64,000 nt of DNA from a virus: the IMG/VR virus record IMGVR_UViG_3300021961_000040, positions 44,075 to 108,074 of that record. One strand, given 5' to 3'. Positions within the stretch are counted from its first letter, which is position 1. Every line of letters starts with the position of its first letter. Both the position numbers and the translations under genes were made by a program. The notes beneath the pieces are model-generated. The model was not told the origin of the DNA. It searched no databases and saw nothing but the letters and a program-made list of their open reading frames with translations. Positions 12,724 to 44,436 of the stretch are shown piece by piece.

Positions 12724-13446
12724 AGACTTTGTTTACGTGGTCAACTATCCAGCAGGTGTAGATGAACAATGGGATAAGGAGGCTATTGAAAGCTTTAATA
12801 AGCTTTTAGATAGCTCAAATTTGATATTGCTTATTGTGATTTTTGGAATACCCGTAGGAAGCTTTCTTACACTATTGATACAAAATTATGGGAAATAAAT
12901 CAAGCCTATTTGAATACTTATTTATAATTGCGATTATAGTGCCTATTGTGTATTATCAAGTTATTAAGTTAGCAATTAAATCTGAGTTTTTATATGACAG
13001 AATTAGAAATAATAAAGCTTCTTCTAGAAGAGCTGGAAGGACAAGCTACACACTTAAGGGTATCAAGAGGTTACGGTGTTGGGCATCCTCACTGGGAAGA
13101 AAGAGCTGGAAAGCAGATGTTGGGTGATACTCCTTATGCACCAGAAGAAGAAGAATCAAAAGAAACAACTCAAGAATTTAAAAAAGTAAAAGTAAGTAGA
13201 GTATTTAAAAAATGAATTACCTGAAAATGTATTGTGATATTTTTGGTTTAATACTCAAAAAAGACAGTGTCTTTGACAAAGAAAATAATCTAGTTGGGAA
13301 AGTCGAAGACAAAAAATATATCCACTTCACATATCAGAGCAACCCGGTCAAACTATCAGATCTTTGGTTAGCTGTATTTGAAAGAATTCGTGTACATTGA
13401 TTAAATCCAAAGTATAATAAAAGCAACCATTTTAAAGGAGCAAAAA

Positions 13447-13638
13447 ATGGCAACCGTTAAAGCTAAGAAAAATGAAAGACCCGATTCTCTAATTAGACGT
13501 TTTCAGCTTGCAGTCGAGCAATCAGGAATTATGAAGGAACTTAAGCTTCGTCGATATTTTATGACAAATGCTGAAAAGAAAAAAGCAAAGCGTAAGGCAG
13601 CTGAAAAGCGCCGCCGCAAAGAAGCAGAAGGCAAGTAG
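13447..13638 (+). CDS. rpsU: Ribosomal protein bS21
   Basis: E..DSLIRRF...V..SGI..E.K.RRYF....EKKK.KRKAA.KRR; own promoter at 13390 and SD AAGGAG. Confidence 0.88.
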   Translation: MATVKAKKNERPDSLIRRFQLAVEQSGIMKELKLRRYFMTNAEKKKAKRKAAEKRRRKEAEGK

Positions 13639-13665
13639 AATTCCAGAAGTATATTTATATATACT

Positions 13666-14082
13666 ATGAAAATAACTAGACAACAACTTAAAAGTATCGT
13701 CAAAAAAACACTTTTTGAAAATACATTAAGTAAAAATAATGATATTAATATCACGATGGACGTCCCTAAAAGAGAGGGCGTAACTTTTTCAGTCAAAGCT
13801 ATTGGAACTAGAATAGTAGCAATTCTTGAATCAGAAGAAGGTCATCGTCGAATTGGCGACAATGATGAAGATAAGAAAATTCTTTTAGGAATTTTAAGAG
13901 CTACATTAGAAACAACTAGTAAAGAAGATACAAAAGAACACCTTGTTAGGTTGATTGCTAGACTGACAGGGGAATCTGAGTCTGAAATTGATATGCCGGC
14001 GATGATGTCTAAAATATTAAATGATAGATCTTTAGCATCTTATTCACAGCATATTCAAGACAAGAATACAAGACTAGTTTAG
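13666..14082 (+). CDS. Hypothetical protein with MKITRQQLKSIV leader
   Basis: Leader motif; ATATTTA motif at 13651. Confidence 0.65.
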   Translation: MKITRQQLKSIVKKTLFENTLSKNNDINITMDVPKREGVTFSVKAIGTRIVAILESEEGHRRIGDNDEDKKILLGILRATLETTSKEDTKEHLVRLIARLTGESESEIDMPAMMSKILNDRSLASYSQHIQDKNTRLV

Positions 14083-14355
14083 ATGTGGTATGTTTACATT
14101 GTAGAATGCAAAGACCAATCGCTCTACACAGGCATAACTAATGATATTGCTCGGAGAGTATCTGAGCATAATAATTCTAAGCGTGGTGCAAAATATACTA
14201 GATCAAGAAGACCTGTAAAATTAGTTGCACATTGTCTTGTAAAAGATAAATCAACAGCCCTAAGATTAGAACATAAAATAAAGTCTCTAAAGAAGAGCGA
14301 GAAAATTGCTTATTTACTAAAGGAGAAAAGCAATGAACTGGAAGACATTGAGTAA
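14083..14355 (+). CDS. GIY-YIG nuclease (UPF0213/YhbQ-like)
   Basis: WYVYIV.C.D.SLYTGITND..RR..EHN...GAKYTR.RRPV.L. Confidence 0.92.
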   Translation: MWYVYIVECKDQSLYTGITNDIARRVSEHNNSKRGAKYTRSRRPVKLVAHCLVKDKSTALRLEHKIKSLKKSEKIAYLLKEKSNELEDIE

Positions 14356-14722
14356 AATTGAGATGAGAAACCGTGAAAACGAAACTGAGAATTTTGTAAT
14401 TCAATACGACGGTAATTTTTACCGAATCCAGAATGAGTTTGGTAACATTAGTTTTGAGTTCGATGTTTCGTCTGGGTATGCATTTGTAGAAGAGTTGAAC
14501 AGTATTATTTCTTCTGATATTGAGAGTGAGATTAATACTTTCTTGAATGAACAAAACATGCAAAATGACAATGATTGCTGCAGTGATGTTGACACCAATC
14601 CTCAAATGAACCTCTTTGATAATAAAAATATTAATTACAAGAATTCAAAGTCAGTAAAACCATCGAAGGGTCTTAATATTATCAAGAATGGCGTCGGTAT
14701 TACTTTAAAGAAGAATGGGTGA
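14333..14722 (+). CDS. Hypothetical protein
   Basis: SD AAGGAG upstream. Confidence 0.6.
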   Translation: MNWKTLSKIEMRNRENETENFVIQYDGNFYRIQNEFGNISFEFDVSSGYAFVEELNSIISSDIESEINTFLNEQNMQNDNDCCSDVDTNPQMNLFDNKNINYKNSKSVKPSKGLNIIKNGVGITLKKNG

Positions 14723-17627: not shown

Positions 17628-18441
17628 AACTGTTGAAATTACAGATGTAGAAACTTTACAGGTGCTTTCACATCCAGTTGTTCAAAATGCTTTTCGGAGC
17701 GGCGGATGGATAGCGGGAGGTTTTCCTCGATTGGTTGGACGAACAATTCTAAGACCACATCGTCTTGATAGTATTTCATCTAACAAGTCAAAACTCTTTC
17801 AATTTTATTTTCAAAATAGAGGAGACATAGACTTCTTTTTTCGTAATCATGATGATTTTGCAAGTGCTGTGACGAAAGGAGCTTATCATCAGTCTGCTTT
17901 TGCACATAACATGTGGCTTCATAATCGCGAAGGCGTCTTATCACTTAAAGTACAGCTGGTAAATAAATTTTACTATGACACTATTAAACAAACATTCGAT
18001 TCTTTTGATTTTTTAAATTCTTGTTACGCAATTGTACAAATTAATCGAAAATATTATCTCACATACGATGAAGCCGCTAACGATGCAGATATTGCAAAAG
18101 AGCTTGTCATTAAACATGCAAATTCTCCGTATACTCTTCAAAGAATAGTCAAATATCTTAATGACCGAGGACTAGAAAAAGTCTCAAAAAGTTCTTCAAA
18201 AAATCTTGAAGAACTTTTGATAAGATCTGCTTCTAAAATTTTTGATAAAAAGTATTCTTTTAGTTTAGCTGAACCTTATATTAAAAAGTCAATAGATTTT
18301 ATTTTCACGTCAGGGTTGGTTAGTCCTGAAAATGCTATCTACTTTATCGGTAAATATAGTAAAGTCATTAAACAAAAATATGGACCATCAATTATGTCAG
18401 ACTGGGCTTCAGACATAATTGAAAAGAGTGCAACTTGCTAA
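17611..18441 (+). CDS. Nucleotidyltransferase-fold protein
   Basis: WIAGGF.R ... GDIDFFF ... VQLV ... FDF pattern of pol-beta superfamily NTases. Confidence 0.6.
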   Translation: MQSDFKTVEITDVETLQVLSHPVVQNAFRSGGWIAGGFPRLVGRTILRPHRLDSISSNKSKLFQFYFQNRGDIDFFFRNHDDFASAVTKGAYHQSAFAHNMWLHNREGVLSLKVQLVNKFYYDTIKQTFDSFDFLNSCYAIVQINRKYYLTYDEAANDADIAKELVIKHANSPYTLQRIVKYLNDRGLEKVSKSSSKNLEELLIRSASKIFDKKYSFSLAEPYIKKSIDFIFTSGLVSPENAIYFIGKYSKVIKQKYGPSIMSDWASDIIEKSATC

Positions 18442-18478
18442 AAAAAGATATATGATATAAATAAAGAAGGAGTATACT

Positions 18479-18844
18479 TTGATTAAAAAGACAAAAGTTT
18501 GCATTCATTGTGAAATTGAATTCGATCTTAATTCTACTGCAAAGAAGTATGCTGGAGGAAAGATTAATGAATGCCCGGATTGCGTTGAAGAGCTAGGAAC
18601 AGAAACAGCAGTTAAGTATCTCGGACTCCAGGCCGGAGATGGCAAGGCTAATGCATTAAGCATTGTTGCATTCGAGTCAGATGACGACCGTGAAGCCTAT
18701 TCAAGCGCATGGAAAGCAGTTACGGGGCATCATAAGGGTAAGTCCTGTCAGCTTGGTGGAGTCCAGACTAATATTGGAAATAGACCGATGCGTCATGTTG
18801 CTTATGCCGGCGGAAATGGAAATCACAAAGGCAAAGCTGACTAA
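18479..18844 (+). CDS. Hypothetical Zn-ribbon protein
   Basis: CxxC...CxxC; own promoter (18428) and SD. Confidence 0.6.
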   Translation: MIKKTKVCIHCEIEFDLNSTAKKYAGGKINECPDCVEELGTETAVKYLGLQAGDGKANALSIVAFESDDDREAYSSAWKAVTGHHKGKSCQLGGVQTNIGNRPMRHVAYAGGNGNHKGKAD

Positions 18845-18901
18845 TCAATAAAAAGTCTCCTGATTCTATAATTACTATTAATAGATCAGGTAAAAATAAA
18901 A

Positions 18902-19717
18902 ATGAAAAAAATATTTGAAGATTGGAGAAGCTTTCTTTTAGAAAGAAAAACAGACGTTCTTTATGAAAAGATTGCAGACTATTTTTATAGTTTGTTACAA
19001 GAACATGAAAAATACTTTTGGAAATTTACAGATAATTCTCAAGATTATTTTGAACTTGCTTTGAAAAATCGTGTCATAACTAAAGAAGAATTTGCAAGAT
19101 ACCAAAAATTAACTGGTGATGACACAGTTATGTCAACATATACAGACTTTTATGTTGCAATGTCTAAGTTTGGAGTAAAAGCAACAAATCAAAACGTTCG
19201 TCCAGGAGCAGCAGCTGATATGTCTAATAAAGGCAAAATGAGAATCTTTGTTAGTAGTCAGCCAAAAACTGTTTCTTCTTTTGTTCAAAATATACATCCT
19301 TTAACTTTTAGACATGAAATAGCGCATTGGCTAAATTCAATAAGAAGCGGCTTTAAAAAATATCGTTCTAAAGGTGTTGGAAAAAGTACTTCAAAATCAT
19401 TTAATCCAAGAGAAGCTTACTATTACGCTAATAGCACAGAAGAGATACAAGCAAGAGCTGCAGAAGTTTTTAATATAATTAAAAAAGCAGTTTTTCGTCA
19501 AGTACCTGAAAATTCACAATTTCCAGACGATCTTATTGCAAAAGATTTTCAAAATTCTTTGCGCGAAAGAAAACCTAAGATGTTTGTCAAGCATGCTATA
19601 GAAAATTACGCCTACGATTACTTTTTCTACCATCTTTTAACAGAAAAAAATAAAAGAAGGCTAATAAAAAGATTTTATGAGATGTATAATCACCTTGTAG
19701 AAAAAGAAAATCTATAA
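18902..19717 (+). CDS. HExxH zinc-metallopeptidase-like protein with MKKIFEDWRSFLLE leader
   Basis: HEIAH and downstream Y.NS.EEI.A. Confidence 0.6.
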   Translation: MKKIFEDWRSFLLERKTDVLYEKIADYFYSLLQEHEKYFWKFTDNSQDYFELALKNRVITKEEFARYQKLTGDDTVMSTYTDFYVAMSKFGVKATNQNVRPGAAADMSNKGKMRIFVSSQPKTVSSFVQNIHPLTFRHEIAHWLNSIRSGFKKYRSKGVGKSTSKSFNPREAYYYANSTEEIQARAAEVFNIIKKAVFRQVPENSQFPDDLIAKDFQNSLRERKPKMFVKHAIENYAYDYFFYHLLTEKNKRRLIKRFYEMYNHLVEKENL

Positions 19718-19729
19718 AGGAAAAATCAG

Positions 19730-19921
19730 ATCAAAACTCTTAAAAAAGTTATTTTGTGGAGAATTTTATCAATTGCTTTAACTTATTTTGTAACTTACGC
19801 TTATACAGGTGATATAAAGTCTGCAACTGGATTCACAGCTATTTTACATTTAGTTTTAATGGCTGCTAATTATATATTCGAGATTTGTTGGGAAAATACT
19901 ATAGGCTCACAGAAAGAATAG
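19730..19921 (+). CDS. DUF2061-like small membrane protein, apparent ATC start
   Basis: KTLKKVILWRILS...YTG.I..A reading frame; AAGGA SD 8 nt before ATC; no ATG/GTG/TTG before the conserved region. Confidence 0.45.
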   Translation: MKTLKKVILWRILSIALTYFVTYAYTGDIKSATGFTAILHLVLMAANYIFEICWENTIGSQKE

Positions 19922-20513
19922 TTTTTATGTAAGTTTCATAATCTACAAGATAAAAATCTTCTCCTATTTGCATCCATTCTGGATGCATGATGTGTCCTCT
20001 GATGTGTATATGACTCCAACCAAGAGCATGTCCTAACTCATGCTCTAAAGAAAGTCTTTTTTCTAAAACAAATTCCTTACAAATAACATCAGCATTTAAT
20101 ATTTCATAGGAATCAAATTTTGTGGCAGTTATAGTAACTGCAATTTTATTTTCTAAAATTTCTGCTTCGTTAGATCTTGGAAGTCTAATTCTAATGCTGT
20201 TAAAAAAAGGAGATTGTGCCATACACTCTCTAAATAAGTCTCCTTTTCTAACTTCTCCGAATTCATATCCGAGTTTTTCCCAAAACAACAAGACACTTCT
20301 TATTTCTTCTGTTGTAGCAATTTCGTCACAGATAATAATACTAGGATAAGATTGCTTAGGCCAGTAAGCTAATAAATTATTCTTCTTGATAAACTTTGAT
20401 TCTTCAGTATCAATAATAGAAGTTGGATTATTTTTTAACTGATCAAAGTTTTTTTCTTCGAGATTACAACTAGAAATGCAGAATAAAATAATAAAAAATC
20501 GTAAAATGTTCAT
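19899..20513 (-). CDS. Matrixin (M10)-like metalloprotease lipoprotein
   Basis: HELGHALGWSH plus Met-turn (HIMHP); ISSC lipobox-like signal. Confidence 0.75.
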   Translation of the reverse strand: MNILRFFIILFCISSCNLEEKNFDQLKNNPTSIIDTEESKFIKKNNLLAYWPKQSYPSIIICDEIATTEEIRSVLLFWEKLGYEFGEVRKGDLFRECMAQSPFFNSIRIRLPRSNEAEILENKIAVTITATKFDSYEILNADVICKEFVLEKRLSLEHELGHALGWSHIHIRGHIMHPEWMQIGEDFYLVDYETYIKTILSVSL

Positions 20514-30084: not shown

Positions 30085-31842
30085 ATGTCTGATTTACTCA
30101 AATACAAAAAGCTGACTGACATTGAGCATGTCTTACTTCGGCCAGGAATGTACGTGGGTTCTATCAAGCATAGGACTGACGATATTTCTATTTACAATGA
30201 AGGCCGATTTAAAACTGAAAGTGTCACTTATAACCCGGCATTTTTAAAGATTTTTGATGAGATTGTATCTAACTCTGTTGATGAACACAGGAGAAATCCA
30301 CACAAGCTAAACCAACTTAATGTACTTGTCAATCCTGAAAAAGGTGCAATCCTAGTTAAAGATAACGGTGGTATTATCGTTGATAAGCATCCTGAGCATA
30401 ACGAGTGGATTCCAGAGCTTATTTTTAGCAATCTCAAAGCAGGATCAAACTTTGATGACACTGAAGAGCGTCTTGTTGCTGGAACAAATGGCGTAGGCTC
30501 GACGCTTACTAATATTTTCTCAAGAGTCTTTCGCGTAAAGACATGTGACGGCAAGAAGCAGTTTTCGCAAAAGTTTGTCGATAATATGACAGACCGCGAA
30601 GAACCAGAAGTTGTGAAGGCAACGTCTCCTAAAGGTTTTACAGAAATTGCTTTTATGCCTGATTTTGAACGCTTTGAGATGGAGACAATTGACGAAGATC
30701 ATATGATGATGCTCCAGAAGCGTGTCATTGATCTAGCAGCTTGCAATCCTAAATTAAAAGTTTCATTTAATAACGAAGATCACACTTTCAAATCTTTTGA
30801 AGAATACTGCAAGCTCTATGTAGAAGATGTAATCTATGTTGAAGGCAGTCGATGGAAAATTGGTATGGCACCTTCTAACGGTTCAATGCAACAAGTAAGC
30901 TTTGTTAATTCTGTTGAAACCTCAGATGGAGGCACACATGTTGATTATATTGCAAATCAGATTGTAACACATCTTCGTGCACTAATTAAAAAGAAGCACA
31001 AGATTGATGTCCGCCCTCAGGAAATCAAGAATCACTTGTTTTTGTTTGTGCAGGCTGATATTGTCAATCCTATCTTTTCTTCACAGACTAAAGAAAAACT
31101 TATTACTGAGCCTAAGCAATTCGGATCGTCTTTTGAGTTTTCACCGGCTACGATTAAGAAGATTGCTTCTTCTGAAGTAGTTGAAAGAATCCTAGACTGG
31201 GCACAGCAAAAAGCAATTGCTGAAGAGAAGAAAGAGCTTAGAAATCTTAATAAAAACTTAAGCAAATCAAAGATTCTTAAGTTAATTGATGCAAAAGCAA
31301 GAACCCAGCGTCAAGACTGTTCACTTGCCATCTTTGAGGGAGATTGCTTAGAAGAAAATACTTCTATTTTTGCACTTAGAGAAACAGATGAAGAAATGTT
31401 TCGATCAATTAAAGATGTTGAAGTTGACGATTATGTTTTGACTCATAAAAATCGATTCAAGAGAGTTGTTGCCAAGACTTCAAAAATTGCAAAGTCGATA
31501 ACTATCAAGACAAAAAAAGGCAATGTAGAATCATCAGAAAATCACAGATTGTGGGTTTACGATACAGAGCTTAAAGAATTCTGTTTTGTAAAGTCTTCTA
31601 GCTTGATTCCAGGAAAGCACAAGCTTGTCAAGTCGAAACTAGCAAACAGCCCTGTGTTTTTAAAAATTTCTGAAGTTAGAAAATGCAAAGATTGTATTGT
31701 GATCAAAACAGAAGACGGAATTGTTACTTCTTCTTATGCACATAAATTTCTTGTTTTTTCAATAGAAGATCAAAACTTCATTCTTAAGCTTGCTGAGGAG
31801 ATAAATGGAGAAATTCATCTCTTAGTCTTGAATTCTAATTAG
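30085..31842 (+). CDS. Type IIA topoisomerase B subunit, N-terminal part (GHKL ATPase and transducer), fused to split intein N-fragment
   Basis: EHVLLRPGMYVGS, EIVSNSVDE, DNGG, GTNGVG, SQTKE; stops resembling topoisomerase at FEGD, followed by CLEENT. Confidence 0.93.
   Translation: MSDLLKYKKLTDIEHVLLRPGMYVGSIKHRTDDISIYNEGRFKTESVTYNPAFLKIFDEIVSNSVDEHRRNPHKLNQLNVLVNPEKGAILVKDNGGIIVDKHPEHNEWIPELIFSNLKAGSNFDDTEERLVAGTNGVGSTLTNIFSRVFRVKTCDGKKQFSQKFVDNMTDREEPEVVKATSPKGFTEIAFMPDFERFEMETIDEDHMMMLQKRVIDLAACNPKLKVSFNNEDHTFKSFEEYCKLYVEDVIYVEGSRWKIGMAPSNGSMQQVSFVNSVETSDGGTHVDYIANQIVTHLRALIKKKHKIDVRPQEIKNHLFLFVQADIVNPIFSSQTKEKLITEPKQFGSSFEFSPATIKKIASSEVVERILDWAQQKAIAEEKKELRNLNKNLSKSKILKLIDAKARTQRQDCSLAIFEGDCLEENTSIFALRETDEEMFRSIKDVEVDDYVLTHKNRFKRVVAKTSKIAKSITIKTKKGNVESSENHRLWVYDTELKEFCFVKSSSLIPGKHKLVKSKLANSPVFLKISEVRKCKDCIVIKTEDGIVTSSYAHKFLVFSIEDQNFILKLAEEINGEIHLLVLNSN
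31345..31842 (+). mobile_element. Split intein N-fragment (165 aa)
   Basis: Block A CL..NT.I, I.DV.V.D.VLTH, block B SSENHRL; second block-B-like copy SSYAHKF. Confidence 0.88.
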
Positions 31843-31904
31843 CACCTCCCACAAAAGTAGAGAAGTCTCCCTCCAAGATAGATAATTATCTAAAAGGAGG
31901 CAGT

Positions 31905-32948
31905 ATGTTTATCAGCGTATTTGAAGATTTTAAAAGCTTGGGCAAAATTGAAGTCAAAACAAAAAAACTTGATAAGAAAATTATCGAGATATCAATGAGA
32001 AAAAAATTAAACAAACATTATGACTTTCAACTATTTGAAGATTTTTTTCAAAAAAATAATTTGAAAGTTCCAATATGCAATATTTGTAAATCTCATCACG
32101 TTCCCTATAGTTTTAAAATAACGATTGAATCTGGATTGATTAAAATTCTAGGCGTCAATCTACTTAAGAAATATCAATATTGTTACGCAAAAAGTGATCA
32201 CTGTGCAAAACTAAGTGCAGGAAGAAAAATGAATCCAAATTCAGCCAAGTTTATTTCACTTGTAACGGGAGTAAGCGAGACAGAAGCGAAGCAATATATT
32301 AGAAACAACAATAAAAGTACTTTTTACAGAGAGAATTTTAACTCATACGAAGAGTATAAAAACGCTCAGAAGCGTGATTTGAAATACTTTGTTTCTAAGT
32401 ACGGAGACAAAGAAGGGCAAGAAAAGTATAAAAGTGCAATCAGGAAACAAAATTATAAAAGATCAAAAGAATTTTATATAAAAAAATTTGGCCCTTTGAA
32501 GGGTATTGAAAAATTTCTTAAGTACAATAGGGCGAGAACGAACAAATTTAGAGGTACGTCAAAGTGGTCACTTAAACTTATCAATCGTGTTTTGGCAAAT
32601 GTTGACAAAGAATCATTTGACAAGATTATGTTTGGTAATAAGGAATATTCTTATACAGATGTCTCATGTAAAAAAACATATTTTTGTGACTTCTACATAG
32701 AAAAAGATGGCAAAACAAAAGTAGTAGAATTTAATGGTCATGCTTGGCATGCTCCGCCTAATTTGTCTGAATCTGAGAAACTTCAATGGAAGCCTGCAAG
32801 AGGAAATAGATCGTGGGCAGATGTGCATAAAGGTGATATAAGAAAGTATAATACTTTAAGATGCGCTGACTTTGAAGTCCTGGTCGTTTGGGACTTCGAA
32901 GATGAAGAACAAATAGTAGAAAAAATTTTGGATTTTTTGAATGATTGA
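31905..32948 (+). CDS. Free-standing homing endonuclease (Vsr/DUF559-like PD-(D/E)xK C-terminal domain)
   Basis: KYG..EG repeats; YFCDFY...VVEFNGHAWH...D..K....FEVLVVW; lies between the intein halves. Confidence 0.8.
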   Translation: MFISVFEDFKSLGKIEVKTKKLDKKIIEISMRKKLNKHYDFQLFEDFFQKNNLKVPICNICKSHHVPYSFKITIESGLIKILGVNLLKKYQYCYAKSDHCAKLSAGRKMNPNSAKFISLVTGVSETEAKQYIRNNNKSTFYRENFNSYEEYKNAQKRDLKYFVSKYGDKEGQEKYKSAIRKQNYKRSKEFYIKKFGPLKGIEKFLKYNRARTNKFRGTSKWSLKLINRVLANVDKESFDKIMFGNKEYSYTDVSCKKTYFCDFYIEKDGKTKVVEFNGHAWHAPPNLSESEKLQWKPARGNRSWADVHKGDIRKYNTLRCADFEVLVVWDFEDEEQIVEKILDFLND

Positions 32949-33708
32949 CATTGTTGAAAACTTTTTAGAGTTAGTTGAGATTGATGATCTTATTAAGACT
33001 GACGAATACAAAAACATGATTGACATTACTGTGGAAGATGATGAGACCTTTGTTTTAGAAAACGGAATTGTATCTCACAATTCAGCATCTTCTGCATTCC
33101 GAAAATATCGCAATCCTAACCTCCAAGGTGCATTTCCACTCCGAGGAAAATTTATCAACGTGTCAGGATTGAGCCCACTTAAAGTAGTTAAAAACAAAGA
33201 GGTGACTTCTCTTCTTGGCGCAATCGGATTAAAACTGGGTGAAGAAGCAAAAAATCTACAGTATGGAAAAATTCTAATCTATTCAGACGCAGATCCTGAT
33301 GGTGACTCTATTGCAGGTTTGCTCATTAACTTTTTTGGTCGCTATTGGCCTGAAATGTTTGAGCAAGGGATAATTTGTCGTGTAATCACGCCAATTGTTG
33401 TTGCAAAGAAAGGCAAGCAGAAGAAATCTTTCTATACAAACGAAGAGTTTGATGAATGGGTGTCTGATCGTAGTAAAATTAAAGGCTGGGAAATTGAATA
33501 CAAGAAGGGTCTTGCCGCGCTTGAAGATGAAGAATACAAAGAAATCATTCAAGATCCTAAAATGTTTGTGATCGAGAAAGGCGATAACTTTCATGCCACT
33601 CTAAATCACTGGTTCTCAAAGAACCCTATACACAGAAAAATGAAGATTCTTGGTCGAGACTTAAGTGATCAAGAAGTAGATGAAACTAACGACGAAGAGG
33701 ATGAATAA
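32941..33708 (+). CDS. Split intein C-fragment (47 aa, 32941-33081) fused to the topoisomerase II B Toprim domain
   Basis: MIDITVEDDETFVLENGIVSHN|S (blocks F and G), then SA, FPLRGKF.N, D.DPDG, YKKGL. Confidence 0.93.
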   Translation: MIDIVENFLELVEIDDLIKTDEYKNMIDITVEDDETFVLENGIVSHNSASSAFRKYRNPNLQGAFPLRGKFINVSGLSPLKVVKNKEVTSLLGAIGLKLGEEAKNLQYGKILIYSDADPDGDSIAGLLINFFGRYWPEMFEQGIICRVITPIVVAKKGKQKKSFYTNEEFDEWVSDRSKIKGWEIEYKKGLAALEDEEYKEIIQDPKMFVIEKGDNFHATLNHWFSKNPIHRKMKILGRDLSDQEVDETNDEEDE

Positions 33709-35210
33709 TGGGAAGTAGCGTCCCTGCAAAAGGACAAGTAAAGTTTGATGAAGTTGTAGTAACTTTTAAAAGAGAACATGACGGATCTTACACGAAACAA
33801 ACAAAACGTCTCACACGAGATCGACAGACTAGCGCTGTAAATTATTACAAAAAGAACAATCCGATAATTGAAGAAGGTCCTTATGTAGCTGTCATATCAG
33901 GTGAAGACTACGACGAAATAATGTCTTTTGAAGGTATAAATGGCGAAACAGTCAACATGTACTTTAAAAAGATTGAAGTAGAAGGGATCGAAGAATGAAG
34001 ATTCTCATTGAGGTAGAAATCAACATTAATCTTGAAACAAGCGAATGGACAGAAGAAAGTCTTTTTGAAGTTTTGAATGACCAGCTTCTTAATATCGATT
34101 TGCTCGAAGAAGATGAGTACGTTAGTAATGTTACTCTACTGAAGAACGAAGAATGAACAATCAAAAGTTTTTGTTCAATACTGTCATTGTGGCAATAACT
34201 GATTTTTCTGTAGGTTACGTTTTTGGACGCTGGATTATACATTCTTTACCTGCATTTTAGGAGAAGAAAAAATGAAATGGGAAGTTAGACCTCTCGAAGA
34301 CGGTAGCTGGGGAGTTTTTTTAATGCAAAAGTTTTGCAAAACAAAAGAACCGGTTTGTTACGGAAGAGCAACTTTAAAATCAACTGCCGAAAGTGTAGTC
34401 GAAAGAATGAACAATTGGCAGCAGGAATTAGAATAATGAAACCTGAGCTTGATAAGATTCTTGCAACATCGTATCCGCTTCTTTACGCTGACAGACATGA
34501 AAATAAAAAAAATACATTTATGTGCTGGGGCTTTTCTTGTGGTGATGGATGGTTTGATCTAATTTCAGAACTTAGTCAAAAGATTGAGTCTGAAATTAGT
34601 GATATGTTAAAAGAATATTCTGACTTCTCATGCGTGACGTGTGGTTGTGAAAAACGTAAACATTACGGTTGCGCAACTTCTCAAGTCGGAAAGTGTCTTG
34701 CAATTTACAAAGACCCGACATCAAAAGAAGAACCTCCTGGTAATTATCGTGCTTGTTTTTGTGAAAAATATAAAAGCTCACATCCGAGAGCAGCGCAAGT
34801 GAAAGAAAAATATGGAGGTCTTAGATTCTATATGACTTTGACTAATGACAAAATTAGTGCACTAATTTCTGAAGCTGAGGCTCTTTCTTTGAAGACGTGT
34901 GAACTGTGTGGGAGTGAAGGCAAACTTAGAAAAGATGGCTGGTATTCTACAAGATGTGATGAATGTTACAAAAATAAGAAAGTAAAATATTAGCTAAGGA
35001 ATCATGATAGACATGTTCGATATCAAAGAAGGTGAGCTTATACAAGTTTTAGATAGTAACGGAAGTATTATAGATACAGGAATGTACATTGGTAAAAAGC
35101 GTATTAACAATATACATCACTGGTTAATTTTAAGTGGAAAAGGATATCGAAAACTAGATACATCTTTTCACACTCTTTTAAAACTGGAAGAAACAAATGA
35201 ATGCAGTTAA
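33708..35210 (+). other. Short hypothetical genes between the topoisomerase B and A genes, including Cys-rich 34436-34993
   Basis: Coupled ORFs; QVKEKYGGLRFY..CExCG motif in 34436-34993. Confidence 0.6.
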
Positions 35211-36537
35211 AAGAAAAGCACAAGACTTTTTCGATACTGAATATCTTGGATATGCGAGATATGTTGTCGAAAATCGCGCCATTCCAAGTCTAGTAGACGG
35301 TTTTAAACCAAGCCAGCGCAAGATTGCTTACGCGGCCAACAAACTCTGGAAGACAGGCAAGGAAAAGCCGATGAAAGTCTTTCAGCTAGGCGGGCAAGCT
35401 GCTGCAATCTCATTCTTCCATCACGGTTCTCTTGACGGAACCATTATCGGAATGACTCAGACATTTAAAAACTCCATGCCTATCTTTCAAGGTGTGGGCC
35501 AGTTTGGCTCACTTAGATCGCCAGAAGCGGGTGCGCCTCGATACATCGGTGTGAAGTTTAACGAGAACTTTCGACGTCTCTACATGGACTTTGGTCTTAC
35601 AACACCGAAGTTTGAGGAAGGACAAGAGATTGAGCCTAAGTACTTCCTCCCGATTGTTCCCACAGTGCTTCTTAATGGTGGTTCAGGGATCGCTGTGGGC
35701 TTCGCAACCAATATTTTGAACCGCAACCCATCTGACATTATTGAAGCCTGCCTGGATCATCTGTCAGACAGGAAGATTAATCGACTCAAACCATGGATTA
35801 ATGGATTTTATGGTACGGTTACTCCTATCCCTGACACACCGAGAAGCTGGATCTTTCACGGAGATTATGAAGTCAAGAACACGTCTACAATAATTATCAA
35901 TGAGATCCCGCCCAGTTGGACGTATGAGAAGTACGAAGCACATCTTGATAACCTTCAGGAAAAAGGTGTTATCACAAGTTATGACGATGAATCTTCCGAC
36001 CGCGTAAAATACACAATCAAATTTCAGAGAGTAAAACTTAAAGAGCTTATGGATAAGAACAAGCTCGTGTCAACTTTAAAACTCGAAGAGCGTCAGACAG
36101 AGAACATTACTACGCTTGACGAAAGAGGCGAGCTTAAGATTTTCGAGACAACTGAAGAATTGCTTGCTTATTTTGTAGACTTTCGGTTGGGTTATTACGT
36201 CAAGCGCAAAGAGTACTTGCTTAACAAGATTGATTGTGATCTATTTATTATCAACAATCGGGTCAAGTTTATTAAGTCTATCATCGACACGAAGCTCGAG
36301 CTGCGTAATAGAAAAAGATCAGATATTGAAAAAGATCTGCCTCTTCTTGATATTCAAAAGCATGAAGAGTCCTATCGGTATCTACTTGACATGTCCGTTC
36401 ACTCACTAACAAAAGAGAAATGGGAAGAGCTTCAAAAGCATGCTGCTGATCTAAAGAAAGAACGCGAGAAAATTGAAAAGACCTCACCTGAAGATTTTTA
36501 TAGAAAAGACTTGAGAGAACTTAAAAAGTTTGTTTGA
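35197..36537 (+). CDS. Type IIA topoisomerase A subunit (T4 gp52-like)
   Basis: RAIPSLVDGFKPSQRK, HHG, GQFGS, APRY catalytic Tyr, GIAVGFAT. Confidence 0.95.
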   Translation: MNAVKRKAQDFFDTEYLGYARYVVENRAIPSLVDGFKPSQRKIAYAANKLWKTGKEKPMKVFQLGGQAAAISFFHHGSLDGTIIGMTQTFKNSMPIFQGVGQFGSLRSPEAGAPRYIGVKFNENFRRLYMDFGLTTPKFEEGQEIEPKYFLPIVPTVLLNGGSGIAVGFATNILNRNPSDIIEACLDHLSDRKINRLKPWINGFYGTVTPIPDTPRSWIFHGDYEVKNTSTIIINEIPPSWTYEKYEAHLDNLQEKGVITSYDDESSDRVKYTIKFQRVKLKELMDKNKLVSTLKLEERQTENITTLDERGELKIFETTEELLAYFVDFRLGYYVKRKEYLLNKIDCDLFIINNRVKFIKSIIDTKLELRNRKRSDIEKDLPLLDIQKHEESYRYLLDMSVHSLTKEKWEELQKHAADLKKEREKIEKTSPEDFYRKDLRELKKFV

Positions 36538-36595: not shown

Positions 36596-37096
36596 ATGGG
36601 TGGTAAAGCTCACGGCGGAAAACGCATTAGTAGAGAAACAGCACTGAGTCTATATTCTGAGATTGTAGACCAGATGCCGACTGTTGAAAGTATCATTTTG
36701 TGCGGGAGCGCAAGACGTCTAAAGCCCACGTGCGGTGATCTAGACATTGTCGTTGTGCCTGCTCAAGATCCGAATCTCGCAGGCGAACTTGACAAGTTCT
36801 TTGTACAAATGTTCGGACATCAAAAGAGCGGAAAGTCTGCAAAGAACGGTTTGTTCCGAGGCGTCCAGACAGAGTTTTATATTGCATCTCCGAATAATTA
36901 CGGAACTTTTAAGCAGATGTGGACTGGTAGTGCCTATCATAACGTTTCTTTGCGTCGTAAGGCAACCAAGATGGGATATTCTCTTTCCCAATATGGTCTT
37001 AAATGTAAATCTACGGGTGAGATTGTAGAATTCAAAAGTGAAGAGGATCTTTACAAGGCACTTGACACACCATTTAAAAAACCGGAGGATAGGTAA
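36596..37096 (+). CDS. Minimal X-family DNA polymerase (palm and C-terminal subdomains only)
   Basis: GSARR..TCGDLDIVV, TGS..HN..LR..A...GY.LSQYGL. Confidence 0.88.
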   Translation: MGGKAHGGKRISRETALSLYSEIVDQMPTVESIILCGSARRLKPTCGDLDIVVVPAQDPNLAGELDKFFVQMFGHQKSGKSAKNGLFRGVQTEFYIASPNNYGTFKQMWTGSAYHNVSLRRKATKMGYSLSQYGLKCKSTGEIVEFKSEEDLYKALDTPFKKPEDR

Positions 37097-43876: not shown

Positions 43877-44436
43877 GTGTAAAACTCAACAATGATGTGT
43901 TAATATACAAATTACCTAAGTGGAGAAAACAAACTGTATGTCACGTAATGATGATTTGGAAATTGAGTCCGGACCTTATGTTGTGTTGAGCGACGGAAGT
44001 CTTTTTGATGATGCTTTTGAGTGTGAAATCGCTTATATGAGCAGAATTGCCGAAGATGAAGTCTTGATTACACAGAATAGAGGGTGGAAATCGGGTGATG
44101 GGCCAGCTATACATTTTGATGCTGCTGAACCCGACCAAATTTATTCTATTCCTCTTCGAGAAATTATTCGATTTTACTTTGAGAATCACCCAGAAGAGGA
44201 TCCGATGAGATGATTTATACAGCCATCTATTGGAGTACATGCTCTGGTGAGTTTTCTCGGGCAGTTGTTTTTAACGCGTCTTATAATAAAGAAGATGCCT
44301 GGAACATCGCTCTAGAAATGCTGGGTAAACATGAGTGGGAAATGCTCGTTTGTCTTGTTCCGGGCAGCCATGAAACTTGGGCCCCTTGTATGCATTAAGC
44401 CTCACTTAAGTATTAAAATATCAATACGAGGTAAAA

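Follow-up and report, generated by a model that had tools for sequence, protein, structure and literature searches.

Why is the gene for the large subunit of a phage type II topoisomerase broken within the catalytic EGDSA motif of its Toprim domain, and could its two pieces still give one enzyme? This question is raised by a 64,000-nucleotide (nt) stretch of viral DNA, hereafter the window, which is the last 64 kb of the 108-kb linear IMG/VR virus record IMGVR_UViG_3300021961_000040 (positions 44,075 to 108,074; completeness estimate about 48%). An initial annotation, made from the letters of the window, had described three neighbouring open reading frames (ORFs). ORF1 was said to end in AIFEGD-CLEENT with a 165-amino-acid (aa) N-terminal intein piece (IntN) followed by a stop, ORF2 to be a separate 347-aa nuclease between the halves, and ORF3 to start with a 47-aa C-terminal intein piece (IntC) ending in VSHN and to continue as SASSAF and the Toprim domain. 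This anatomy was borne out in all three ORFs, and the nuclease was modelled with a Vsr-like fold. The locus is very probably a fractured gene of the kind described by Dassa et al. (2009). The T4-type large subunit of topoisomerase II, an essential protein, is encoded in two parts that would be joined by trans-splicing, and a Vsr-like endonuclease is encoded between them. In the motifs given below, a slash marks the break.

Position of the break in the topoisomerase

The extein of ORF1 matched the topoisomerase II large subunit profile phrog_543 with an E-value of 6.9e-123, its residues 6-420 covering profile positions 27-445, and residues 47-252 of ORF3 covered positions 445-651 of the same profile. 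The Pfam search detected DNA_gyraseB in ORF1, and Toprim and TOPRIM_C in ORF3. The closest uninterrupted homolog was a 615-aa protein from an uncultured 642-kb phage (LR756502.1), with the junction region ...FEGDSAAGAF.... In the BLASTP comparison, residues 6-420 of ORF1 aligned with residues 6-420 of this homolog at 56% identity, and residues 48-237 of ORF3 aligned with its residues 421-614 at 53% identity.

The extein halves are colinear with the uninterrupted homolog, and the break separates D420 from S421. It is exact at EGD/SA because both the profile alignments and the homolog alignments abut at the junction. When the 165 and 47 intein residues are taken out and D420 is joined to Ser+1, the result is a 628-aa subunit with EGDSA restored. 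This colinearity fits the earlier proposal that the element sits at the Toprim EGD/SA motif and that joining the halves would rebuild it.

Identity of the intein pieces

IntC was recognized directly. It passed the curated model TIGR01443 (intein_Cterm) with 30 bits against a cutoff of 15.6, and it matched the end of Pfam Intein_splicing (profile positions 121-155, E 9e-4). Its best sequence neighbours in the PDB were the Npu DnaE inteins, and its blocks F and G end in His-Asn, followed by Ser at position +1.

IntN carries Cys1 and the block-B motif S64-x-x-H67. An exhaustive phmmer search of IntN against 1.84 billion representative proteins returned 105 matches, most of them proteins of about 570-620 aa that end in the same module after ...EG(x)/C(L/I)xE(N/D)T. 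The distant matches sit in long ribonucleotide reductase (RNR) and DnaE proteins where Pfam calls Hint_2 and Intein_splicing; the RNR protein P0155, for example, was matched at residues 207-305, within its Hint_2/Intein_splicing region. A profile built from the IntN-only fragments matched the gp41-1 split intein (6riz) with an E-value of 1.8e-5; its matches to the KlbA intein and the hedgehog Hint domain were weaker. By this family profile and by transitive homology, IntN is assigned to the Hint superfamily. The AlphaFold2 (AF2) model of IntN had a predicted local distance difference test (pLDDT) score of 88.4 and a predicted template modelling (pTM) score of 0.43. Its structural neighbours were mainly inteins, namely PI-PfuI, the PolII mini-intein, MchDnaB-1, KlbA, NrdJ-1, Npu DnaE and gp41-1. 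The initial intein assignment was thus upheld by the direct Hint/intein profile searches for IntC (TIGR01443 and Pfam); for IntN it failed in the direct searches and was recovered through the family profile match to gp41-1.

The same site also carries a contiguous intein in the metagenomic protein P0163 (676 aa), where a mini-intein of about 154 aa, recognized by Pfam Intein_splicing, lies in FEGF/CLDGDT...SNGIISHN/SAS. Past the start of the C-extein, the sequence of P0163 resembles out-of-frame junk, and this record may be frameshifted or chimeric.

In the proposed mechanism, IntN and IntC would associate after translation into a class-1 Hint domain. Cys1 would undergo an N-S acyl shift, Ser+1 would attack the thioester, and Asn47, helped by His46, would cyclise. 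The intein pieces would then be released and ...FEGD joined to SASSAF..., and the 628-aa product would pair with a gp52-like subunit. The endonuclease would cut intein-less alleles in co-infecting relatives, with the whole cassette copied into them as a consequence.

Distribution and conservation of the family

We found 13 independent IMG/VR loci by IntC-Toprim alignment. All 13 carry both the N-terminal topoisomerase half with IntN and IntC with the Toprim half, and 11 of them have an intervening ORF with the N-terminal domain of ORF2; two loci (L036 and L040) have no endonuclease between the halves. The same three-ORF layout is present in GenBank in an uncultured 462-kb phage (LR756500.1, locus L001), and chance could hardly account for such recurrence. 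About 100 protein clusters share this layout. Clustering at 90% identity places the IntC-Toprim proteins, which are about 240 aa long, in at least 51 clusters; they come from contigs of up to 770 kb. Fractured topoisomerase II is common in large phages and plentiful in public metagenomes, and the family is widespread and essentially undescribed.

These loci bear on whether the window shows an artefact of assembly or sequencing, or else a pseudogene of recent origin, in which stops and frameshifts, spurious or recent, interrupt an endonuclease-containing intein that was once contiguous. Such an origin would agree with the window being one metagenomic contig and with P0163, where junk-like sequence comes after a contiguous intein. 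We consider it extremely unlikely, since the layout recurs at 30-60% identity in the 13 IMG/VR contigs and in one GenBank genome; in these, the ORFs have their own starts, stop and start codons overlap, the endonuclease C-terminal domains differ and some loci have no endonuclease. Moreover, none of the three ORFs is truncated, and all are conserved.

The residues of the splicing reaction are strongly conserved in the family. Cys1 was present in 91 of 96 members, the block-B His in 106 of 107, and SHN/SA in all 51 homologs compared (51/51). As the catalytic residues are kept despite an overall identity of only about 30-40% across roughly 100 clusters, this pattern points to selection for splicing chemistry.

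Several results weigh against a functional trans-splicing intein with its own regulated endonuclease. Taken alone, IntN had no Hint match in direct searches of Pfam, NCBIfam (including TIGR01445) and PDB sequences. The structural matches of its model reached Z ≤ 6.2 with a large root-mean-square deviation (rmsd) over the full core; such Z values are expected when half a Hint domain is folded alone. At 165 aa, IntN is also unusually long because its block-B module is duplicated. Residue -1 (Asp420, codon 31342-31344) is Asp in 52 of 87 fractured alleles, the remainder having Leu (13), Gln (6), Asn (6), Phe (3), Ala (3) and others; therefore, restoration of EGDSA is not universal. The variability suggests either relaxed constraint at this Toprim position or co-adaptation with the -1 preference of the intein. 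Lastly, the spacer hairpin that would bury the GGAGG of ORF2 is weak (RNAfold -12.9 kcal/mol, z -1.6), and its sequence is not conserved in the related loci; the resemblance to the hairpins of Dassa et al. that sequester ribosome-binding sites is only suggestive.

Two of these points, the extra duplicated module and the variable -1 residue, would suit intein halves that no longer splice and that act as non-covalent assembly tags, like the C- and N-terminal extensions in T4 gp39/gp60 and in the split NrdA of Aeh1. T4 topoisomerase II does function as non-covalently assembled subunits after the mobA insertion. This explanation is improbable, however, because the residues needed only for splicing (Cys1, the block-B His, the terminal His-Asn and Ser+1) are near-invariant in diverged members, which is unexpected for a dimerisation tag. 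Additionally, some 210 extra residues would probably disturb the enzyme at this break, which falls within the catalytic EGDSA loop. Trans-splicing of the fractured subunit thus remains the favoured explanation.

The intervening endonuclease

ORF2 matched phrog_22677. Neither its sequence nor the profile of its family gave anything meaningful against PDB sequences, and Foldseek with the AF2 model (pLDDT 80) returned only weak PD-(D/E)xK matches. In VIA-align, residues 217-347 matched the catalytic domain of I-Bth0305I (3r3p; Z 9.7, 92/98 residues, rmsd 2.4 Å), a DUF559-like protein (3hrl; Z 9.6) and Vsr (1cw0; Z 9.5). All 10 homologs share D262, E275 (in EFNG), H282 and D330 (in VWD) without exception; these residues were called catalytic because of their likeness to the motifs in PMC2677866 and PMC3239194, and not from a superposition. 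The model shows residues 1-216 as largely helical, with no Pfam match and no NUMOD signature detected. On the modelled fold, ORF2 is a member of the Vsr-like/EDxHD homing endonuclease family and is predicted to cleave DNA. This family was first defined from fractured genes (PMC2677866), and its biochemistry was described later (PMC3239194).

Only two of the 13 loci (L028 and L029) have the Vsr-like C-terminal domain of ORF2 as well. As the N-terminal domain is common and the Vsr-like domain is seldom found, nuclease modules seem to have been swapped behind a common ORF2-type N-terminal domain, which would then be a site-specific DNA-binding module to which different nucleases can be joined. 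The Pfam search of the intervening ORFs of eight related loci detected no domains.

Further observations concern the same ORFs. Those of L001 (7804-8925), L030, L032, L034, L035, L037 and L038 have an N-terminal ORF2 domain of about 200 aa without the Vsr-like domain. That of LR756500.1 ends, in a reading by eye only, in an HNH-like motif (HLDH...NL...N..K).

The middle ORF could instead be an unrelated nuclease, for example of defence or repair, and not a homing endonuclease for the EGD/SA site. ORF2 has no Pfam or PADLOC-type annotation, and Vsr itself is a repair enzyme, as this alternative would predict. Even so, the best structural match of ORF2 is a characterised homing endonuclease, I-Bth0305I; its N-terminal domain recurs at exactly the same position in 11 of 13 loci, with the nuclease domains swapped; and Vsr-like ORFs are typical occupants of fractured genes (PMC2677866). 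We therefore regard an unrelated nuclease as very unlikely.

The stop of ORF2 overlaps the ATG of ORF3 by 8 nt, and a stop/start overlap of 4-11 nt was present in seven of nine loci examined, which suggests translational coupling. A scan for sigma-70 promoters and terminators gave results no better than shuffled sequences.

At several loci, the motif ACCTTCAAA was observed at the 3' end of the IntN ORF, where it encodes ...TFKL*, with a second copy in the spacer some 12-20 nt further downstream. It was located in L032 (4624-4660), L035 (4623-4655) and L038 (4627-4660), and also in L028, L001 and L040 near the end of the IntN ORF. This motif might have a regulatory function or be the scar of a recombination event.

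Sister split inteins

Related split inteins were found at further sites. Loci L039 and L040 have a second one, likewise starting with CLEENT, inside the DxDxD metal-binding motif of Toprim, with ...LYTDAD/CLEENT... and ...ILSHN/CDGNAIS... as its junctions (L039 5998-8584; L040 5998-7176), which gives a large subunit in three pieces. The ORF between the second halves of L039 is Eco57I/N6-methyltransferase-like according to Pfam, not a homing endonuclease. The gp52-like A subunit is also fractured, in LR756500.1 (L001 9658-12380) and in L031 (7535-9377). In these genes, the break at ...FYHHGD/CGDYDT... is followed by a 300-aa Vsr-like endonuclease and then by ...VVHN/SALNQ.... Therefore, one holoenzyme would need two different trans-splicing events.

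The genome of the window also has a second candidate. Its dnaE gene (Pol III alpha) lies in two fragments at record positions 13033-14661 and 17941-20214, upstream of the window. The N-terminal fragment ends in an IntN-like module (IntN hidden Markov model (HMM) E 8e-14, residues 448-514), and the C-terminal fragment starts with an IntC (TIGR01443 19.8 bits; IntC HMM E 1e-4). The fragments are about 3.3 kb apart, and a minus-strand ORF lies in the gap. Judging from these matches, dnaE appears to be fractured by a related split intein. Sister inteins that coexist in one phage would have to be naturally orthogonal to avoid mis-splicing.

Duplicated module in IntN

In IntN, the block-B module (residues 41-95) is followed in tandem by a diverged copy of itself at residues 107-161. 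The local alignment of the IntN tail against residues 41-95 scored 60, against 25.9 +/- 4.8 for shuffled sequences, and none of 2000 shuffles reached this score. In BLAST, residues 108-163 of IntN cross-matched the block-B region of the L028 IntN. The duplicate retains its His in 69 of 89 family members, and in the model its structure resembles a small Hint-like beta module (Npu intein 5ol6, Z 5.8). No such copy is present in the contiguous mini-intein of P0163 or in sister inteins at other sites (the second-site IntN of L040). The IntN tail was also considered as a pseudo-IntC 'cage'; this was rejected, as the similarity of the tail to IntC was reached by 44 of 2000 shuffles and that to IntN 41-95 by 0 of 2000.

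A possible but rather doubtful extension is that IntN has a new Hint architecture and that the sister inteins at EGD/SA, DAD/CDG, HHGD/SA and dnaE are naturally orthogonal. The copy of block B would be appended at the canonical point of endonuclease insertion or splitting, where it might serve as a built-in chaperone or placeholder, with the N-fragment held soluble or inactive for as long as IntC is missing.

Organization of the locus

The coordinates are summarized in Table 1. The intact gp52-like gene downstream encodes what would be the partner of the spliced large subunit. Directly 3' of it lies a small PolX-like ORF (36596-37096, 166 aa; DNA polymerase beta-like, palm and thumb).

Table 1. 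Features of the fractured topoisomerase locus in the window (positions of the 64,000-nt stretch).
Feature	Position	Strand	Description
ORF1	30085-31842	+	585 aa: 420-aa extein ending in AIFEGD, then 165 aa from CLEENT; TAG stop 31840-31842
N-extein, topoisomerase II large subunit (gp39-like)	30085-31344	+	GHKL ATPase and transducer up to Toprim E-G-D, 420 aa
IntN	31345-31839	+	165 aa; Cys1 31345-31347; block-B His67 31543-31545
Block-B module duplicate in IntN	31663-31827	+	Residues 107-161 copy residues 41-95
Spacer ORF1/ORF2	31843-31904	+	Predicted hairpin pairing the GGAGG Shine-Dalgarno of the endonuclease gene
ORF2, free-standing homing endonuclease (predicted)	31905-32948	+	347 aa
ORF2 domains	residues 1-216; residues 217-347 (nt 32553-32945)		Putative DNA-binding (1-216); Vsr-like/EDxHD nuclease (217-347), from AF2 model and structure match
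ORF3	32941-33708	+	255 aa: 47 aa ending in GIVSHN, then SASSAF and Toprim/TOPRIM_C
IntC	32941-33081	+	47 aa; ends in His46-Asn47, Asn codon 33079-33081
C-extein	33082-33708	+	Ser+1 33082-33084; rest of Toprim plus TOPRIM_C, 208 aa, stop
Topoisomerase II A-type subunit (gp52-like), intact	35197-36537	+	Pfam DNA_topoisoIV E 1.7e-83; phrog_551

Comparison with known systems

The fractured genes of Dassa et al. have the same layout, with N-extein-IntN, a Vsr-like endonuclease in overlapping frames and IntC-C-extein in an essential phage gene of DNA metabolism. The endonuclease-free loci L036 and L040 have a counterpart there in gp41-7. The seven hosts of that set are gp41, IMPDH, DnaE, NrdA, NrdJ, ligase and terminase, with no topoisomerase (PMC2677866), whereas the host here is topoisomerase II. 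Moreover, IntN is 165 aa long with an internal duplication, compared with about 88-105 aa in the Dassa genes, and, unlike in that set, the holoenzyme of a relative can be broken by related split inteins at as many as three sites.

The initial annotation had also suggested that a type II topoisomerase host and this insertion site may be new. The host is not, since contiguous GyrB inteins are already listed (PMC4760082). The classical GyrB intein (Ssp GyrB type) is likewise class-1, lies in the Toprim EGDSAGG loop of a type IIA B subunit and has Ser-Ala first in its C-extein. However, it is contiguous, cellular and has an endonuclease-sized internal insert, whereas the intein described here is split and phage-borne. 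We rejected the possibility that the Ssp GyrB intein occupies the same EGD/SA site, as the scans gave no true matches and its real site lies four residues downstream. The junction HN/SAGGSAK had no true match in two pattern scans of 185,579 species genomes. The cyanobacterial intein site is ...FLVEGDSAGG/CFDGDT...GVFVHN/SAKQGRD, present in 37 of 401 cyanobacterial genomes sampled. Measured from the classical GyrB site, the phage site lies four residues towards the N-terminus. The exact site therefore appears to be distinct, and this part of the suggestion stands.

The literature search found a single earlier mention of such a topoisomerase II arrangement. A bioRxiv preprint of 2022 describes, in one sentence and a figure panel, a metagenomic Topo2L sequence, 'MGS5', split by a VSR endonuclease flanked by Hint/HintC (10.1101/2022.08.31.505936). 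It presents one sequence and states no site, split-intein analysis or distribution. Compared by description only, MGS5 probably belongs to the same element family.

The T4 enzyme is also split within Toprim by a homing-endonuclease cassette. There, the mobA cassette splits the large subunit at about aa 466-473, and topoisomerase II becomes an enzyme of three non-covalently assembled subunits (PMC11461880; 10.1101/2022.08.31.505936). The T4 arrangement (gene 39/mobA/gene 60) has no intein; it has added tails for non-covalent assembly and a 50-nt translational bypass, whereas the break here is at residue 420 with intein motifs. Regarding the endonuclease, I-Bth0305I combines an N-terminal DNA-binding region, which is putative in ORF2, with a C-terminal Vsr-like nuclease that likewise has E, D, H and D residues (PMC3239194). 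It differs in being intron-encoded, in recA, whereas ORF2 is free-standing and its N-terminal domain is joined to other nuclease domains in relatives.

Implications

Some of the fastest tools for protein ligation, gp41-1, NrdJ-1 and IMPDH-1 among them, are natural split inteins from fractured phage genes. To these, the locus adds a large and diverse family of about 100 clusters, in which the C piece is 47 aa long and the junction has Ser at +1. The main value of the family is as a source of new, possibly orthogonal split inteins, together with its odd duplicated N-intein. The coexistence of related intein pairs in one enzyme implies orthogonality and, if this is true, the sister inteins would be a ready-made set of co-evolved orthogonal split inteins.

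For genome annotation, the 'gyrase B fragments' of about 240 aa and the 580-aa 'truncated' topoisomerases of huge phages are halves of one protein. The Toprim loop is a hotspot for homing elements because cellular GyrB inteins, phage split inteins and the T4 mobA cassette invaded it independently. A phage can apparently make an essential type IIA topoisomerase dependent on what would be one to three trans-splicing events.

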